Assembly (NCBI GenBank): GCA_965116905.1
Contig: OZ220732.1
Span: 3,584,001-3,648,000, forward strand
DNA: 64,000 nucleotides
From: Longimicrobiales bacterium
GTDB lineage: Bacteria > Gemmatimonadota > Gemmatimonadetes > Longimicrobiales > Gaopeijiaceae
Direction: 5' to 3'
The translations under genes and the position numbers were made by a program. Position 1 is the stretch's first letter. Every line of letters begins with the position of its first letter. The notes under the pieces were generated by a model. That model made no database searches, was not told where the DNA came from, and worked only from the letters and a program-made list of their open reading frames with translations. Positions 17,946-26,543 of this stretch are shown here, in pieces.

Positions 17946-19967
17946 TCAACTCGCGGCTTCCACCTCCGCCTCCACCGATTCCCACTCACGCATCAGTCGT
18001 GCGATCCGGCCGGTCAACTCGTTGCGCTCGGCCTGCAGCGTCTGGACTTCTTCGGGCGCCGATTCCTCGTAGAATGTTGGCGACGCAAAGACTGCGTCAA
18101 TTTCGGACACGCGCGCTTCGGCCGCGTCGACCTGCTCGGCGAGCTTCGCTCCGGCGGCCTCCAGCTCGCGCAGCTTGCGGTCACGGCGGGCGCGGGCGCG
18201 GCGGTTCTTTCCCCAGGTGTCCTGGCTGGTGCTGCGGGGGGAGTCGCCCTCTTCGGCTCGGGAACGACGGCTCTCGGCCCTCGTGTGCGCCAGCACGGCT
18301 TCGGTGTCCAGGTGGTCGTCGCCGCAGTGGTGCACGTATTCCTCGTAGGTGCCGCGGTAGTCGCGCATGCCGTCTTCGGTGATCTCCACGATCCGGTTGG
18401 CCAGCCGCCCGACGAACCAGCGGTCGTGCGAGACGAACACCAGCGTCCCCGCGAAGTGCTTCAGGCCTTGGACCAGCGCCTCGATCGACTCCAGGTCCAG
18501 GTGGTTGGTCGGCTCGTCGAGGATGAGGACGTTGGGGGCGCGGATCATCAGGCTGCACAGCACCAGGCGCGCCGATTCCCCGCCGGAGAGGGCGCCGAGG
18601 CGCTTGTCCGCGTCGTCGCCGGTGAAGAGCACCATGCCCATCTTGCCGCGCGCGAAGCCCGTTCCCTTGCCCTCGCAGTAGTCGCTGATCCAGGCCTCGG
18701 CGGTCCGCCGCTCCGGCGGTCCGGCCATGGCGCCGCCCCCGGCTCCGGCCGTGCGTCCGCCCGCGGCGCCGCCCCCAGCCAGGTGGTCCTTCGGGTCCTG
18801 TGCGAAGTACCCGGGCCAGGTCTCGTATCCCCACTCGACCGATCCCTCGTCCGCCTCCAGCCGTCCCACGACGATCTTCAGCAGCGTGGACTTGCCGATG
18901 CCGTTGGGGCCGACGATCGCGAGCCGGTCGCCCCGGCCCACCCGCAGGTTGACGTCCTGAAGCACCCGGTTGTCGCCGTACGACTTGCCGACTCCCTTGA
19001 CGCGCAGGACCTCGCGGCCGCTGGGCCGCCGCTGCTCGAAGCGGAAGGTCGGGTAGCGCCTGGAGCTCTTCGGCAGCTCCACGAGCGCTTCCGTCCTCTT
19101 CTCGATCAGCCGGAGCTTGCTCTGCGCCTGGCGCGCCTTGGACGCCTTGGCGCGGAAGCGGTCGACGAACTTCCGGTGGTGCGCGATCTCGCGCTCCCGC
19201 ACGGCGATCTCCTTCTCGCGCCGGTCCCGCTCGGCCGTCTTGGCACCCACGAAGCTCGTGTAGTTGCCCGGGTACCCGATCACCGTCTCGTAGTCGATGT
19301 CGAGGATCTGGGTGGCCACGTTGTCGAGGAAGCGGTGGTCGTGGCTGATCACGACGACGGGGCCGCGGAAGCCCCGCAGGAACTTCTCCAGCCAGCGGAT
19401 CGAGACGATGTCCAGGTGGTTGGTCGGCTCGTCGAGCAGGAGCGCGTCGGGGGCGCTCGCCAGGACCTGGGCCAGCAGCACCCGCAGGCGGAAGCCGCCG
19501 GAGAGGGTGGACAGCGCGTCGTGGTGGACCTTGGCGGGGAGCCCGAGGCCCTCCAGAATCGCCGCCGCGCGCGGTTCGGCCGTATATCCGTCGTGCCGTT
19601 CGAAGACCTCCTCGACACGTGAGAAGCGTTCGGCGTCGAAGTGTTCGCCGGCGCTTGCCAGCACCTCGTCCCGCTCGGCCATTGCGTCCCACAGCTCCTC
19701 GTTGCCCATGAGGGCGACCTGGAGGATCTGCTCGTCCTCGTACAGGAAGCGGTCCTGCCGCAGCACGCCGAGACGGATCCGCCGGGGCATGTCGACCGAC
19801 CCCTCGCTCGCCTCCATGTCCCCGGCCAGGATGTTCAGCAGCGTCGTCTTCCCCGATCCGTTGGCGCCGACCAGTCCGTAGCGCTCGCCGGGATTGAGGC
19901 GGAACGACGCGCCCTCGAAGAGGACCCGTTCGCCGAAAGACCTGGAGAGGTGGGTGGCGGAGATCAT
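17946..19967 (-). CDS. ABC-F family ATPase
   Basis: Two NBDs (GANGSGKT and GPNGIGKS, LDEPTNHLD x2), PtIM linker RFRAKASKARQAQS, C-terminal coiled coil, no TM segments. Confidence 0.92.
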   Translation of the reverse strand: MISATHLSRSFGERVLFEGASFRLNPGERYGLVGANGSGKTTLLNILAGDMEASEGSVDMPRRIRLGVLRQDRFLYEDEQILQVALMGNEELWDAMAERDEVLASAGEHFDAERFSRVEEVFERHDGYTAEPRAAAILEGLGLPAKVHHDALSTLSGGFRLRVLLAQVLASAPDALLLDEPTNHLDIVSIRWLEKFLRGFRGPVVVISHDHRFLDNVATQILDIDYETVIGYPGNYTSFVGAKTAERDRREKEIAVREREIAHHRKFVDRFRAKASKARQAQSKLRLIEKRTEALVELPKSSRRYPTFRFEQRRPSGREVLRVKGVGKSYGDNRVLQDVNLRVGRGDRLAIVGPNGIGKSTLLKIVVGRLEADEGSVEWGYETWPGYFAQDPKDHLAGGGAAGGRTAGAGGGAMAGPPERRTAEAWISDYCEGKGTGFARGKMGMVLFTGDDADKRLGALSGGESARLVLCSLMIRAPNVLILDEPTNHLDLESIEALVQGLKHFAGTLVFVSHDRWFVGRLANRIVEITEDGMRDYRGTYEEYVHHCGDDHLDTEAVLAHTRAESRRSRAEEGDSPRSTSQDTWGKNRRARARRDRKLRELEAAGAKLAEQVDAAEARVSEIDAVFASPTFYEESAPEEVQTLQAERNELTGRIARLMREWESVEAEVEAAS

Positions 19968-19991
19968 TCGGTTAAGCCGGACCCCGATGGA

Positions 19992-20093
19992 TCAGCCGTC
20001 GCCGCCGAGTCGCCTGGCCGATTCAGCGTCGGAGCGGATCGCCGAACGGTCGTAGAGGGCCTCTCGCGGAACGTTGTCGGTGGTGTTTTCCAT
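19992..20093 (-). CDS. Possible 33-aa small ORF/leader upstream of ABC-F
   Basis: MENTTDNVPREALYDRSAIRSDAESARRLGGDG; GAGG/AGGAGG upstream and TATACT just beyond. Confidence 0.3.
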   Translation of the reverse strand: MENTTDNVPREALYDRSAIRSDAESARRLGGDG

Positions 20094-20140
20094 GGATACA
20101 GCCTCGCAGCCTCCTGGTCATACAGTATAGTCACCCCGGG

Positions 20141-21115
20141 CTACCCGAAGTCCTCGTAGAACCTCGCCACGGCCCCGCGGCCAGCCGACTCCCCGCGGCT
20201 GTAGTACGCGGGCATCCTCTCCGACTTCCAGCGCCCGGCAACCATGATCGCGGTCAGGCCCATCCCCTTTGCGGTGAGGTCCTGCGCCATCCCCACGCGC
20301 GGCGAATGGCCGGTGAAGCCCTCGCCGAGGCCCGCCGCGCGCGCCATCGCGGCGATTCGGTTGGAGATCGTGCGACCCGTGGCGATGCCGAAGACCCGTG
20401 CATCCGGATCGGGGTTGGGCGGCCGGATGTAGCGGAGCGCGATGGCGGCCTTCAGCCCGACGAACTGTACCGCCGAGGTCGCAGAGGTCTTGGAACGCCG
20501 GATCGTGAGGCGTGCGCTTCCATCGTGGACGAACGCGATGTCCCGCCAGCGAAGCTCGGCGGCTTCTCCCCTGCGCAACAACGCGTCGCGCATCACCGAC
20601 ACCATGGCGATGTCGACGAGGCCCCTGCGGTGGGCGAAGCCGGCCGACTCGGTGCGGCCCGACGGTCCGGTGCGCGGCAGACACGCGGTCTCCTCGATCC
20701 GCTTGAGCAACTGCGCCGTCAGGCCCCGCGCCTGGCGCGGATTGTTGCGGCCCTTGTCCGTCGCCTGGTTCCGCAGTCCGGCCAGCGTGTTGCGCACCCC
20801 CTCCGACGACGCCGGATTCGGTTGGCCCGCGGTCCGGTGATAGTAGCCGATCGCCTTGCGGTCCATCTCCAGTGACGACATCGAGAGGCCCTGATCGGTC
20901 CGATAGACCAGATAGGCCGCCACCGTCATCGGGTCGGCCGGCAGCGACTGGAGTCCTTCGCCCTCCGCCCACTCCCGGAACTTCCTCCAGGCCCCGGCGT
21001 AGGCCCGGCGCGTGGCCGGGCGCCGACTTCCCTCGACTGCCGCGAGAATCGCCTCGACGTAGTGGTCGGCCACCTTCGCCGCCTCGACCGGCAGGTCACG
21101 ATCGCGCTGCTTCAT
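20141..21115 (-). CDS. Cre-like tyrosine recombinase/integrase
   Basis: SAM-like N domain (TRRAY...W..F..W), DALLRRGE (R), RSKT (K), GHSPR (HxxR), GRW (W), MPAYY (Y); GGAGG RBS. Confidence 0.9.
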   Translation of the reverse strand: MKQRDRDLPVEAAKVADHYVEAILAAVEGSRRPATRRAYAGAWRKFREWAEGEGLQSLPADPMTVAAYLVYRTDQGLSMSSLEMDRKAIGYYHRTAGQPNPASSEGVRNTLAGLRNQATDKGRNNPRQARGLTAQLLKRIEETACLPRTGPSGRTESAGFAHRRGLVDIAMVSVMRDALLRRGEAAELRWRDIAFVHDGSARLTIRRSKTSATSAVQFVGLKAAIALRYIRPPNPDPDARVFGIATGRTISNRIAAMARAAGLGEGFTGHSPRVGMAQDLTAKGMGLTAIMVAGRWKSERMPAYYSRGESAGRGAVARFYEDFG

Positions 21116-21168
21116 GCTCTTCCTCCACACCGTGAATCCATCGTCCCCAGCACACACGCGAATTATTT

Positions 21169-24100
21169 ACGGGGACGGTAACGGTAGAAGGTGCCGGTCA
21201 GCATGGGATCATCGTTCGCCTCACGGGCATGTCCGACGCCGAAACCACGACCGACGAAAGCGGCCAGTATTCCTTCACGGGACTGCGCGCCGGGACGTAC
21301 TCGGTCGAGATCTCGGGCTTCGACGCGGGCGAAATCGGCTTCTCGAGCACCTCGGGTGCGGCGACGGTCGGCGTCGGCGAATCGAAGGTCGTGAGCTTCG
21401 ACGGCACGTATCTCCGCACCGCGGGGATCCAGGGCCAGGTGAGCGTGGACGGCGAGGGCCTTCAGGGCGTGACGGTTACGCTGATGGGCCAGGGCGAGGA
21501 GACGACCGACGTGACCGACGCGGGCGGGCTCTACTCGTTCGCGAAGCTGCGTTCGGGCACCTACCAGATCGCGATCTCGGGCTACGACACCGACGACTAC
21601 GAGTTCCAGGTCACCTCGGAGACCGTGACCGTCGCGACGGGCGAGACCGCGAACGTGCCGTTCGAGGGAACGCTGCTGCGGACCGCCGGCATTGCGGGCC
21701 GGGTCAGCGTCGAGGGCATGGGTCTCGACGGCGTGACGGTCACGCTGGCGGGCGCGGCCGAGGCGACGACCGAGACGGCCAACGGCGGGCAGTACGCCTT
21801 CGCCGGTCTGGCGGCGGGCACCTACGTGCTCGGCATCGCCAACCCGGACGAGGTCGCGTACAGCTTCGCCGAAGACGAGATGCAGCAGACGGTCATGCTG
21901 GCGGACGACGAGTCGGCGATCGTGAACTTCAGCGGGACGCACACCCGGACCGCGTCGGTGACGGGCATGATGTACCTCGACGAGGCGCCGCAGGACAAGA
22001 TGTACACGGCCAACGAGCCGGCGTTCGCGCACGCGGGCATTCCGGTCGCCCTCCAGGGACCCGGGATCAACGACGTGGCCGTGGGCTTGACGATGGACGA
22101 CGGCAGCTTCGCCTTCGAGGGACTGACCGCCGGCGCCTACCGCGTGCTGGTCAACATGACCGATGAAGTGGCGGCGGCGATCGACACGGCCGGCTTCGCG
22201 TTCGCGGGCGATCTGACCGGCACGATCGTGAACGTCGAGGCGGGCGGCAACGCGCAGGTCAACTTCCCGTTCCGGATCACGATGCAGACGCTCGTGGCGG
22301 GCGCGAGTATGGGCAACGCGGATGAGGTGGGGGCGCCCGTCGCGGGCGTCGAGCTGGCCCTGTACGCCAACGCGGACATGACGGGCATGCTCGGCGAGGC
22401 CACGACGGATAGCACGGGAACGGCCACGTTCGATTTCGCCCGGGAGGACAACACCGGGCCGACCGGCAACGACAACATCGTGTTCGTGAAGGTCAACGCG
22501 ACCGGCCACGACGCGCTGATGGTGTCGGAAAACGATTTCACCGAGGTGTCGTACGCCGCGACGGAGCGGGTCTCGTCGGCTCCGGCGGCGGCCATGCTGG
22601 TCAACGTGATGGCGAACTTCCAGTACTGGGTGAAGAGCGACGCGGACGCCCGCGGCGGCGACATGGGTCTCGGCGGCTGGCACACACACGTGTACATGGG
22701 CGACCCGGAGGCCGAGGACGCCATGCCGCTCATGATGGTCGACGAGGATGGCGACACGGTCAACGCGGCCATGCCCACCGACACGGCGAAGGCCAGCAGG
22801 GGCAGGGCAGGTCTCTCCTACATGGTCGATCCCGACGACCTGCCGGCGACATTCACCGTGATGGTCGGTGAAAAGCAGGCGGGTGCGATGGGCGAGATGT
22901 TCGACCAGAGCGACGCGCTGGAGTACACTCACACCGGCCTCACGCACCCGAACATGAACACGGCCGAGATGAACGACCTCGGGCCGATCTACGTGACCTT
23001 CACCACGCAGACGCTCACCGTCGGCGTGTACCGTGAGGTCGACGACGAGCCCGGCTGGACGGACTACCGCGCCGGGGGGCCGGGTGGTGACGGCCGTCCT
23101 GACGCGGCCGTTGCAGCCGAGATGAGCGCCGAGCTCATGACCCGGGACAGCCGCGGCCGCCTGCGCCCGTACGAGTACGATCACGACGGCAAGGCGGCGA
23201 CCGACCCGATCAGCACGATGGCGATCGGCAAGACCGGCATGGCGTCGTTCCCGAACCTGCCGGCGAACGAGGAGCTGACCGTGCGGTTCCACGTCGGCAG
23301 CGACCGGATGCTCGTCGGCGAGACGGATGTCGGCGATATCGATGCGTTCGGCCAGGATCTGGACATCGGCATGTCCTACGGCTCGTTCGGCGACGAGGGC
23401 GGCGCGATGCCCGAGGTCAAGCTCTGTTCGCTGTCCACGGACAAGGACGACTGCGCGACGTTCGCATACCAGTGGGAGACCGGCTCGGTCAGCGGCAACG
23501 TCGCGGGACCGGGCGGAGCTTCGGTCAGCCTCGCCGCCGAGACCGACAACCACTCGGACGACCGGAACACCAAGACGAGCACCAAGACCGCTTCGCGCGG
23601 GGACTACAGCATCAGCGACATCCAGGACGGCGCATACACGCTGAGCACGCCGAACACAGCGGAAAACAGCTTCAGTCCCAAGGGTGGCCACGAGCTGGAG
23701 ATCTACCACGACGAGACCGAAGACGACGAAGACGAGGATACCGACTACGTCGGAACCGCGTGGTCGAGCGAGGCCGACTTCACCGCGACCAAGCTGCGGC
23801 TGTCCATCAAGGGATTCGTGGCCAACGACAACGGTGACGGGCGTGCGCGCGGCAACGAGGCGATGGCCGGCGTTACGGTAAACCTGCTGCAGGCCGCCAC
23901 GGCCAAGGACACCGCCTTCACGGAAGTGGTCGCGATGGCCGAAACGGACGCCAGCGGTCTGTACTCGTTCGACAACCTGATGGAGGGCGAAGAGTACAAG
24001 GTCGCGGTCGTCGCAACGGACGACTACGCCGGTCTGCGAAGCCTCGACGTCAGCAAGTCGGGGGTGGTCATGCCCGACGAGTACCCGGCGAAGGGAGTGA

Positions 24101-25314
24101 CGGCGGAACCGTTGATGCTGCCGAGCTGGGATCACGCGACCAACATGGCTTCGGACACGGAGGCTACCGCGAGGGCAGAACCGCCCAGCACGGTTTCGGC
24201 GACGCTCCAGAACTTCGCGCTGGTCTACAAGACCTCCAACGTGTCGGGCAACGTGAACGACGTCAGCTCGAATGGCGCCGGAATCATCGTCGAGACCGCG
24301 ATCTGCGGGACGTACACGCCGGCCCAGGATCCCGATGGCACCCCTGGCAGCGGCGATGAAATCGCGGAAGACTGTGATTGGTCCAGGGAGGACTTGTACT
24401 CCACAAGAACGGCCAAGGGCGGCGACTACGACTTCAACGGCCTGATGGAGGGCTACTACTCGGTCTGGTACACGGGCGGCGGACTGGCCGCGGCGGAGTT
24501 GGATGCCGAGGGCAAGCCCGACGACGACGCGACCGGCAACACAAGCCCTACGTCCATCATCACCTCGGTGATGGGCCGGAACCAGTACTCGACCGGCAAC
24601 GACTTCCATGTCTACAACACCCGGGCGGGCACCGACGACGAGCTGACCGAGCTGGTGGTCAAGGAATTCACGGCCGATGGCGACTCGGTGGATCTGGGGG
24701 CCGATATTTCCGGCATAACCGCTCAGAGCGTCGACGGTTCGGATGACGTCATCCTCACCACCACCGCGATCGACTTCGCGTCCGGTGGCGTGACGATACG
24801 GACCAAGGTGAGCAGGGGCGCGTCCGCCAGCGCCATGCTGACCACCGAAGTCAAGGGAAGCTCGCCGTCCAACCTGCCATACAACGAGACCGGGACGCCC
24901 ACTGCAGGAACGGACATTGAAACCGGCATCACGGTCAGGGTTACGGCGGCGAACGGCTACAACGACCACGACTACACGTTCAACGTGACCCGGACCTCGC
25001 CTGTGGGTAACGCGCCGACCAGTGTCACGGCCGATGGAACCAGCGTCACCTGGACGGTCGGCGGGTACCACGACGAGGCTGTCGACGCCGACTCTACCAC
25101 CGCGGATATCGTAGTCGACCTCGCAGAGGCACAGAGCCTCGCCGTCACGGTCGGCGGCGACGCCGTAGACTGTGAAGCGGGCACGGCTGACGCCACCATC
25201 CACACCTGCACGGTTACGACCCCGGTGGGACAGACCTCCGCCAAGGTCGAGGTGACGTCGGAGGACGGGGTTGAGGCGAGCATGCTCGTCAACTTCCGGC
25301 GTCCAAGCAGCTAG
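21169..25314 (+). CDS. Large acidic surface protein with carboxypeptidase-regulatory-like (transthyretin/Cna-B) repeats; 5'-truncated, no signal peptide (first ATG at 21229)
   Basis: Repeats of G.V.V.G.GL.GVTVTL.G....T.T...G.Y.F.GL..GTY; in-frame repeat start TGTVTVEGAGQHGIIVRLTG lies upstream of the ATG; in-frame TGA at 21133. Confidence 0.8.
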   Translation, partial: TGTVTVEGAGQHGIIVRLTGMSDAETTTDESGQYSFTGLRAGTYSVEISGFDAGEIGFSSTSGAATVGVGESKVVSFDGTYLRTAGIQGQVSVDGEGLQGVTVTLMGQGEETTDVTDAGGLYSFAKLRSGTYQIAISGYDTDDYEFQVTSETVTVATGETANVPFEGTLLRTAGIAGRVSVEGMGLDGVTVTLAGAAEATTETANGGQYAFAGLAAGTYVLGIANPDEVAYSFAEDEMQQTVMLADDESAIVNFSGTHTRTASVTGMMYLDEAPQDKMYTANEPAFAHAGIPVALQGPGINDVAVGLTMDDGSFAFEGLTAGAYRVLVNMTDEVAAAIDTAGFAFAGDLTGTIVNVEAGGNAQVNFPFRITMQTLVAGASMGNADEVGAPVAGVELALYANADMTGMLGEATTDSTGTATFDFAREDNTGPTGNDNIVFVKVNATGHDALMVSENDFTEVSYAATERVSSAPAAAMLVNVMANFQYWVKSDADARGGDMGLGGWHTHVYMGDPEAEDAMPLMMVDEDGDTVNAAMPTDTAKASRGRAGLSYMVDPDDLPATFTVMVGEKQAGAMGEMFDQSDALEYTHTGLTHPNMNTAEMNDLGPIYVTFTTQTLTVGVYREVDDEPGWTDYRAGGPGGDGRPDAAVAAEMSAELMTRDSRGRLRPYEYDHDGKAATDPISTMAIGKTGMASFPNLPANEELTVRFHVGSDRMLVGETDVGDIDAFGQDLDIGMSYGSFGDEGGAMPEVKLCSLSTDKDDCATFAYQWETGSVSGNVAGPGGASVSLAAETDNHSDDRNTKTSTKTASRGDYSISDIQDGAYTLSTPNTAENSFSPKGGHELEIYHDETEDDEDEDTDYVGTAWSSEADFTATKLRLSIKGFVANDNGDGRARGNEAMAGVTVNLLQAATAKDTAFTEVVAMAETDASGLYSFDNLMEGEEYKVAVVATDDYAGLRSLDVSKSGVVMPDEYPAKGVTAEPLMLPSWDHATNMASDTEATARAEPPSTVSATLQNFALVYKTSNVSGNVNDVSSNGAGIIVETAICGTYTPAQDPDGTPGSGDEIAEDCDWSREDLYSTRTAKGGDYDFNGLMEGYYSVWYTGGGLAAAELDAEGKPDDDATGNTSPTSIITSVMGRNQYSTGNDFHVYNTRAGTDDELTELVVKEFTADGDSVDLGADISGITAQSVDGSDDVILTTTAIDFASGGVTIRTKVSRGASASAMLTTEVKGSSPSNLPYNETGTPTAGTDIETGITVRVTAANGYNDHDYTFNVTRTSPVGNAPTSVTADGTSVTWTVGGYHDEAVDADSTTADIVVDLAEAQSLAVTVGGDAVDCEAGTADATIHTCTVTTPVGQTSAKVEVTSEDGVEASMLVNFRRPSS

Positions 25315-25330
25315 GCACACTCACCTGAGC

Positions 25331-25400
25331 CGACTCTCTCCCGAGAGTCGTGACAGCACGGGTCGCCCCCGTCCGGTCCACCGGGCGGGGGCGATTCGCT
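25331..25400 (+). terminator. Tandem hairpins after the surface-protein gene
   Basis: cgactctc-tccc-gagagtcg and tcgcccccgtccggt-cc-accgggcgggggcga followed by ttcgctt. Confidence 0.55.
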
Positions 25401-25577
25401 TGGGACAGGCAAGTCGCCCTGGAGGTGGCCGAGCGGTCCAACGCGTCCGGACGCCGGAGCGGCTGGCGGAGCGGCAACCCGTCCGCTCGCCAGGTGGCAG
25501 CCCCGGTGGCACTTTGGTGGAGTACCGCACGCGCCACCGGCGCAACCACCCACGCCATCACCAGGAAAACCCAGCCC

Positions 25578-26543
25578 ATGCGTGTCCTCGCCCCGATCAT
25601 CGCCGCCGGAACCGCCGCCGCAACCGGCATCCTGACAGCCCTCGCGCCGTTCGCGCCCACCGCCGCCGCCCAGAGCCCCGAACCGCCCCCGATTCTCAAG
25701 GTCCACAACTACCTGCCGCACATGACGCGGCCCGAAGTCGAGGACTTCCTGACCCGGAGCGACATGGTCGTCATCCCGGTGGGCGCGCTGGAACAGCACG
25801 GCACCCATCTCCCGATCGGCACCGACCACCTGAACGGCGTCGAGCGGGCAAAGCGGCTTGCGCTCCGCACGGATGTCCTGGTGGTCCCAATCCTCCTTCC
25901 GGGCCAGTCCCCGTACCACATGGGCTTTGCGGGCACGGTCACCCTGCCCTCCACGCTGGTGCAAGAGGTCTACGTGGAGTCCGTCAAGAGCCTCATCCGG
26001 CACGGCTTCAAGCGCTTCCTGATGCTGAACGCGCACGGCGGCAACCGCGCGATCACGACCTTCATCGTCGACCGGATCAACCAGGAGACCGCCGGTATCG
26101 CGGTCGACCTGGGCGCCGCGGCCGCGCCGTTCATGGACCGCGTCGCGTCCGGGCCGCCCCCGGACCGCCCGACCGTGCTCGACCGGCACGGGGGCACCGG
26201 CGAGACGTCCAATTCGCTGTACCTGATTCCCGAGTTGGTGGACCTCGACGCGGCGGTGCCGGCGCAACTCACCCTGCCGCCCCACCTGGAGGCGATGGTT
26301 CCCGACGTGCTTGCCGGGGATCCGACCGCCCTGGCGGTATTCCTGGCCGAGGGATTGAAGGATGAATCGACCGGCAAGGGGACGGCGTCCGATCAGATGA
26401 GCAGCACGGGGGTGTGGGGCGAACGCGATCCGCGCGAAGCGACGGCGGAGCGGGGCCGCCGGGTCACCCAGGCGTTCGAGGACGCTGCCGTGGCGTTTAT
26501 CGAGCGCTGGAACGAACTCCGCCCGCCCGGAACCGGCCGCTAG
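25578..26543 (+). CDS. Creatininase family amidohydrolase with signal peptide
   Basis: PVGALEQHGTHLPIGTD, LNAHGGN, HGGTGETS. Confidence 0.88.
   Translation: MRVLAPIIAAGTAAATGILTALAPFAPTAAAQSPEPPPILKVHNYLPHMTRPEVEDFLTRSDMVVIPVGALEQHGTHLPIGTDHLNGVERAKRLALRTDVLVVPILLPGQSPYHMGFAGTVTLPSTLVQEVYVESVKSLIRHGFKRFLMLNAHGGNRAITTFIVDRINQETAGIAVDLGAAAAPFMDRVASGPPPDRPTVLDRHGGTGETSNSLYLIPELVDLDAAVPAQLTLPPHLEAMVPDVLAGDPTALAVFLAEGLKDESTGKGTASDQMSSTGVWGERDPREATAERGRRVTQAFEDAAVAFIERWNELRPPGTGR

Follow-up and report, generated by a model that had tools for sequence, protein, structure and literature searches.

A headless giant lipoprotein gene beside a Cre-like recombinase is very probably a silent cassette of an inversion switch in a Longimicrobiales bacterium

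We were curious to learn why a gene for a giant repeat protein should begin in the middle of one of its own repeats, head-to-head with a recombinase gene. The locus lies in a 64,000-nucleotide stretch of the genome of a Longimicrobiales bacterium (the window), where an open reading frame (ORF) of 1361 amino acids at 21229–25314 on the plus strand is divergent from that of a Cre-like tyrosine recombinase. A first-pass annotation had offered two explanations: a cassette that recombination fuses to a promoter and signal-peptide segment located elsewhere, or a gene truncated by an integration event. We find that the gene (the window body) is very probably a silent cassette of a site-specific head-swap system, similar to vsa and the shufflon and served by a Cre-like enzyme. 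The enzyme would invert the chromosome between a site at the first codons of the body and a matching site 133 kb away, and the inversion would join a shared lipoprotein head in frame to the body. Below, G000 denotes the genome holding the window, G001, G014, and so on its relatives, and L numbers single loci.

The reading frame extends beyond the start codon of the ORF. The 20 codons preceding ATG 21229 read TGTVTVEGAGQHGIIVRLTG, the frame is open from 21136 (the upstream stop is TGA 21133–21135), and similarity to the repeat family sets in at codon GGG 21172, 19 codons ahead of the ATG, which bears out the earlier observation that the ORF begins in mid-repeat with repeat codons upstream. The body breaks at a 15-bp motif (21171–21185), and a dyad, TTAC-GGGGACG-GTAA (21167–21181), is present as had been described. 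The claim that homology ends at an AT-rich patch held in part: the break is there, at the motif, and the patch itself is not conserved, being GC-rich in G001 and G005.

We detected neither a ribosome-binding motif nor a signal peptide at ATG 21229 and no sigma-70-type promoter in 20900–21500 (0 sites in a sigma-70 scan), in line with the first impression that the body lacks all three; Rfam gave 0 matches across 19500–26000. Codons 6–19 have a ratio of non-synonymous to synonymous change (pN/pS) of 0.17 among eight orthologues, compared with 0.10 downstream of the ATG and 0.93 upstream of the site. Across nine genomes these codons carry 10 synonymous and four non-synonymous changes (p = 9e-4 in a simple binomial on few codons). 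Since codons 6–19 are under purifying selection, ATG 21229 is probably not the true start of the body. The nine closest genomes have no in-frame ATG, GTG, or TTG ahead of codon 20, and the ATG at codon 20, found in 10 of 12 members of the window-body clade, is ACG in the other two. In a model of a native headed copy (predicted local distance difference test, pLDDT, 87.8), which resembles pilin and adhesin stalks in structure comparison, the site falls inside strand 1 of repeat 2, so a start at ATG 21229 would lose two strands of the domain. Fusion to a head would be the simplest route to translating the pre-ATG codons.

A candidate head is found elsewhere in the genome. G000 (4.2 Mb) holds five large paralogues, A (the window body), B1, B2, C1, and C2, and contains the 15-mer exactly three times, each at the same junction of a paralogue (A, B1, and C2); the search for paralogous repeat proteins and junction-like sequence suggested earlier was thus rewarded on both counts. 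B1 (3418524, plus strand) is headless and begins at the same 15-mer as A. C2 is a complete lipoprotein gene (G000:C1:3472892-3468021, minus strand) with the site in frame behind a 122-codon head (G000:C1:3472527-3472892, minus strand, outside the window). This head has AAGGA upstream, a positive N-terminus, a hydrophobic stretch, a lipobox-like motif IAAC, and repeat 1. A and B1 are both inverted relative to it, at distances of 132,646 bp and 54,002 bp, respectively, so that the signal-peptide segment postulated elsewhere has a good candidate, carrying the same site.

The other paralogues lack the site. B2 is complete; with a head of its own and no site, it is likely locked in the on state, as judged from its sequence. 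C1 (L002:7292-11870) is headless, with an apparent 16-nt deletion that appears to include the site when set beside G034; it is frameshifted near its end, and tracts of 672 and 488 bp are identical between it and C2. The site is likewise absent from two small lipoproteins (L004:5329-6549 and L005:5006-6934) composed of the family's repeats. A stretch similar to the terminator-like hairpin behind the window body also lies behind B1 and B2. A 34-bp run (22257–22290) that does not differ among the five large paralogues was examined as a possible second site and dismissed, being a conserved peptide in preferred codons and probably ordinary.

The segment from head to recombinase lies within one replichore (skew turns at ∼0.88 and ∼2.93 Mb) and measures 133 kb in G000 versus 47–49 kb in G001 and G034. 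The extra DNA (G000:C1:3481000-3580000) begins near a tRNA-Val, has integrase-, transposase-, and conjugation-like ORFs by reading of their translations, and includes other large repeat proteins. The GC skew from first to last site is 0.0003, whereas 71 overlapping windows within that replichore range from −0.008 to −0.043; a near-zero skew fits repeated flipping but also fits island DNA and is hence not counted as a sign of flipping.

Table 1. Features of the junction and its two genes (window coordinates)
Feature	Position	Strand	Basis
Left half of site: AT-rich patch whose end is the left arm TTTAC, which mirrors the right arm in part; varies between loci	21161..21170	+	
7-bp asymmetric spacer GGGGACG, putative crossover region	21171..21177	+	Identical in three G000 sites
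Conserved right arm GTAACGGTAGA, in rare GTA valine codons	21178..21188	+	
Headless body, 1380 codons; giant surface lipoprotein with SdrD-B/CnaB-like beta-sandwich repeats	21172..25314	+	PF17210, PF13620
19 in-frame codons preceding the ATG: remainder of repeat 2 strand 1, and strand 2	21172..21228	+	pN/pS, model of native headed copy
Cre-like tyrosine recombinase, likely 324 amino acids from ATG 21115; open frame from GTG 21157	20141..21115	-	Pfam, PDB, fold, catalytic residues
GGAGG ribosome-binding-like motif of recombinase, 6 nt upstream of ATG 21115	21122..21126	-	Sequence reading
GC-rich hairpin behind body gene, likely terminator	25360..25397	+	-42 kcal/mol, z -4.6, 0/200 shuffles equally stable

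The neighboring enzyme has the sequence features of a tyrosine recombinase of the Cre type. It matches PF00589 (Phage_integrase, catalytic; 42.1 bits, cut-off 27.1) and PF02899 (N-terminal SAM-like; 24.4 bits, cut-off 22.3) and no NCBIfam family at E 0.001. The top PDB sequence matches are all Cre or Tre (E down to 4e-16), and a fold search placed Cre first (E 2e-12), with a model that is weak at the C-terminus (mean pLDDT 66.6). The catalytic residues reported at first sight are there and align with those of Cre: all 12 homologues in the alignment have R196, K223, H284, R287, and W310, and 11 have Y319, the remaining row being cut off ahead of that position. Its start is most likely ATG 21115, because GGAGG precedes it and the ten closest database homologues are all 324 amino acids long. 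The previous estimate of ∼50 bp between recombinase and junction was right as to closeness, and we correct it to 56 bp from this ATG to the site. Another Cre-like gene (67% identity) is located upstream of B1 and in its orientation.

The site recurs across the genus. A census whose search pattern included the first seven right-arm positions comprised 88 sites (55 headless bodies, 24 heads with a body, eight heads with a short stub, and one recombinase half with a stub), with a right arm of GTAAC(G)G(T)NGA, a left arm that mirrors it incompletely and variably, and 7 asymmetric base pairs between. GTAAC is present in 35 of 36 divergent junctions adjoining a recombinase (one duplicate row removed). 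GTA accounts for 3.4% of valine codons in G000, and of the headed copies chosen through protein similarity (14 of 20 loci readable), six have a GTA-coded right arm and eight use ordinary codons. Because rare GTA codons are kept at sites and these eight copies do without them, the DNA of the site is conserved, not just the peptide. In eight genomes (G000, G001, G014, G034, G073, G075, G029, and G030) the spacer of the window clade equals that of the head, in inverted orientation.

Site and enzyme were also followed more widely. A 14-mer search of 53 genomes from the genus gave 75 matches, spread over 28 of them, versus three for a reversed control, and all 75 exact matches lie at the same junction as in the window; with the three 15-mers in G000, this sets the junction beyond chance. 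A recombinase match (E 0.001, weak ones included) was obtained in 32 of 36 same-genus genomes and in 0 of 24 from other families; at 1e-60, a family draw of 250 yielded 8 of 15 same-genus genomes and four others. Among loci chosen by a recombinase of at least 62% identity (n = 23, the window's own locus included), 18 have the 14-mer (at most one mismatch) at a divergent headless body, in two the site at the headless body has diverged further, and three are without. With recombinases of 53% identity or less, the count is 0 of 7.

We propose the following mechanism. Tyrosine recombinase dimers bind two sites and exchange strands. Here, the Cre-like enzyme would cut the site at the body, and strands would be exchanged with a second site across the 7-bp spacer. 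Left halves would be swapped between bodies: the head, with signal peptide, repeat 1, and a promoter that likely travels with it, would pass to the new body, and the recombinase half would pass to the old one. Because the flipping segment has head and recombinase at its two ends, the recombinase would always face a silent body. B1, 54 kb on the other side of the head, could be reached by the same inversion. A cell would then display one switchable giant lipoprotein beside the fixed B2, perhaps varying its outer coat as a defense against phage, grazing, or recognition by the host. Within this system the window cassette is likely a phase that is seldom used.

Several traces in relatives suggest that such inversions take place. 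Headless bodies oppose the nearest head with the same spacer in 39 of 42 cases, or 38 of 41 without the G014 overhang described below (kin are not independent); the exceptions are G014:16083, G034:1600347, and one in G076. Eight compact units (L037, L038, L039, L040, L118, L119, L121, and L123) place head and recombinase between two inverted sites 1.57–1.69 kb apart. Seven are in an off state, with a short stub behind the head and a body opposite the recombinase half; the eighth (G029:C2:2103062) is on, with the head on a body and the same kind of stub behind the recombinase half. Partner spacers are identical in all eight pairs and come in five variants, all unlike the main spacer. The eight bodiless heads are the reciprocal products that inversion would leave. 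Alternative 5' ends in relatives, which the first-pass annotation had advised looking for, thus exist, and the window clade itself has none. In a tree of 70 bodies (79 less nine shorter than 1,000 codons), headed bodies never group with one another, and the 20 headed ones need 20 state changes (shuffled mean 17.7).

The closest approach to a direct view comes from G014, a single contig whose end repeats its own start. The two agree without a difference over 2,098 bp, to a point 36 bp beyond the site, after which 7,202 bp at 99.986% are the reverse complement of the head-fused body, placing the crossover between −1 and +36. Read this way, the contig end is the inverted isomer, and both isomers occur in one assembly.

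Some findings weigh against a switch that still operates. For the G014 overhang, a chimeric read or a second strain is conceivable, and its upstream repeat gene has 16 differences. The one compact unit in the on state is frameshifted near codon 231. The head adjoins the same flank in G000, G001, and G034, and the window cassette shares no identical run longer than 51 bp with its paralogues. The heads in G034 (G034:C4:1686018, L136) and G036 (G036:C44:114674, L046) are out of frame through one extra G at the site; such a head may be dead or under slipped-strand control, or the assembly may be wrong. In these two genomes the B1-type site has an extra G too, and the fused body of G034 stops after 215 codons.

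Other points concern the window cassette itself and speak for the main rival, a frozen cassette: the body would no longer recombine, the site would be retained as the recombinase gene's operator, and the protein would be made from an internal start or not at all. The window-body clade is headless beside a recombinase in 12 of 12 genomes, unusual at an overall headed share of 20/70. Contig sets X1, X2, and X3 (window 19900–25500) and X1, X2, X3, and X5 (head site) yielded no head-to-window-body and no recombinase-to-other-body junction among those listed, bearing in mind that contigs drop rare variants. At the head site in X1, two left halves meet one shared unitig, which cannot be phased. The presence of ATG at codon 20 in most of the clade, the changed right arm in G014 and G073, and a recombinase promoter that must overlap or lie past a site 56 bp away all suit this reading. 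Nevertheless, we consider it unlikely, given the purifying selection on codons 6–19 with no earlier in-frame start, an internal start that has neither a ribosome-binding motif nor a signal peptide, and a spacer matching that of the head, in inverted orientation, in eight genomes.

One-way gene conversion, in which headless donors are copied into an expressed locus by homologous recombination with the recombinase as a bystander, is known in kind from Borrelia vls and Anaplasma msp2. Near-identical headed and headless bodies are what it would produce. In G030 a headless copy (G030:C7:919978, L051) and a headed one (1712668, L135), 793 kb apart, agree at 99.6% over 3.6 kb; in G005 the agreement is 99.9% over 1.57 kb, to the contig end; and B1/B2 and C1/C2 share identical tracts of 990 and 672 bp. 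Yet the G030 identity begins exactly at the site, with spacers that differ at one base, and gene conversion predicts no orientation bias (38 of 41 are inverted), no bodiless heads (eight were found), and no covariation of spacers. We regard it as quite improbable as a replacement for inversion, on top of which it may act.

The integration event raised at the outset has fared worse. A mobile element would have inserted at the site, cut the gene, and left a decaying pseudogene. Cre-like enzymes do occur on mobile elements, homologues of at most 56% identity lie away from surface-protein genes, and the 133-kb segment has island-like genes. The body, however, is intact in 12 of 12 clade members (1358–1412 codons) with orthologues at 71–94% DNA identity, and its ABC-F and creatininase flanks are syntenic in G001 and G034. 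Moreover, several headless bodies accompany one head within a genome, and the sites are mostly inverted, not direct. This alternative is already largely refuted, and we give it very little credence. An assembly artefact, a reasonable worry for repeat-rich paralogues in metagenome assemblies, is hardly credible and was refuted by single contigs across the junction from three studies (X1, perhaps the source sample, 19900–21423; X2, 20755–21293; X3, 20595–21411) and by the same junction in 11 other genomes.

Two observations on these contigs stand apart. At 21192 those of X1 and X2 have C where the window has T, a synonymous change that may be a strain difference or a consensus error. X3 is an RNA run labelled as a sponge metagenome that contains 0.80 of the region's words; its contigs span recombinase and body alike and, as contigs, cannot show expression.

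Not every genome follows the same scheme. In G023 and G074 (L160 and L161) the recombinase was not found with the window query, three to seven complete headed copies lack the site, and the matches listed all include the head repeat, which by sequence is gene duplication in place of switching. G070 (L195, L196, and L197) has a head and two headless bodies with a common variant spacer, and only broken recombinase pieces were found there. In a sister genus (g23), headless copies of the same protein family break about ten codons earlier and lie just downstream of a P4-like integrase (PF13356, PF22022, and PF00589) on the same strand in all six loci scanned (L187:4154-5440, L189, L191, L192, L193, and L199). 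One g23-type headless copy, in G157, faces a complete copy 18 kb away. The g23 integrase is unrelated to the Cre-like enzyme of the window, and g23 likely represents a second, independent head-swap system.

Taken at its widest, the head swap might belong to a chromosome-scale, modular coat-switching network in sponge Longimicrobiales, a picture we find possible if doubtful. Cre-like enzymes would flip up to hundreds of kilobases, private 7-bp spacers would separate several switches per genome, and the window cassette would be a conserved phase, rarely on (serving, for example, transmission or survival away from the host), whose orientation also resets recombinase expression. The sister genus would swap heads in this protein family as well, through its P4-like integrase and another junction.

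Literature searches, with most subscription papers outside reach, returned no account of such a switch in Gemmatimonadota or sponge symbionts. The accessible part of PMC10581226 has no mention of recombinase or phase variation, and that of 10.1101/2023.03.11.532203 none of Gemmatimonad or sponge, although its supplements could bear on this. If the head swap is real, an uncultured sponge symbiont would run a pathogen-style program that varies a giant surface adhesin. Surface variation as a response to being eaten or recognized, and the phase at each life stage, would become testable with existing long reads. The swap would also account for the "truncated genes" of these genomes and for their broken assemblies, and it would provide naturally occurring Cre-like enzymes whose sites are short and asymmetric, with spacer variants that are possibly orthogonal.

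The head-swap principle itself is already known from mycoplasmas and shufflons, and the present system can be placed among its relatives. We discarded an integron: the recombinase has no NCBIfam match, the break is inside a coding sequence, and one gene follows (attC was not model-searched). The closest solved relative, by sequence and fold, is Cre of phage P1, with which the enzyme shares the catalytic R-K-H-R-W-Y and an arm-spacer-arm site. The loxP site has 8 bp between two 13-bp arms, whereas here the spacer is 7 bp and one arm is degenerate; identity to Cre is ∼20%, and the role would be gene switching, not dimer resolution.

The R64 shufflon (Rci/sfx) is another close system. In the portion of PMC11852207 available, it has a constant N-terminus, a swapped C-terminal part, and a site within coding sequence, and its sfx sites share the 7-bp spacer, conserved right arm, variable left arm, and mostly inverted arrangement. 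The shufflon consists of a few short segments beside pilV, in contrast to chromosomal sites dispersed from 9 kb to more than 1 Mb here, and here the variable part makes up more than 90% of the protein, with SdrD-B-like bodies of 1,350–2,000 codons. The extra C-terminal domain of Rci is missing, since the C-termini of the enzyme and of Cre coincide (query 336 to Cre 341). Mycoplasma agalactiae vpma/Xer1 and M. bovis vsp/Mbr also pair a recombinase with an adjoining family of silent surface lipoproteins and an inversion switch, as far as the accessible text of PMC2268961 describes them. In these, the sites are placed in the 5' untranslated region and what moves is a promoter, whereas the in-coding site here would move a signal peptide and first domain.

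The proposed system works like vsa/HvsR of Mycoplasma pulmonis, in which, according to the accessible parts of PMC2268961 and PMC4534519, a promoter, together with a ribosome-binding site and the initial 714 nt, is set before a silent 3' part. There, site-specific inversion joins an expression head to silent 5'-less lipoprotein genes, as proposed here, with a recombinase nearby. G000 has parts of this type: a head with AAGGA and a lipobox-like IAAC, and silent in-frame 5'-less genes (two with the site and one without). The tie is a likeness in working, not one of membership. Unlike vsa, the present system belongs to another phylum and has a Cre-like enzyme and bodies of 1,350–2,000 amino acids made of beta-sandwich repeats. 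Its sites span 9–200 kb, in a few cases more than 1 Mb; a genome has several recombinase paralogues, every one next to a cassette; and satellite on/off units have private spacers.

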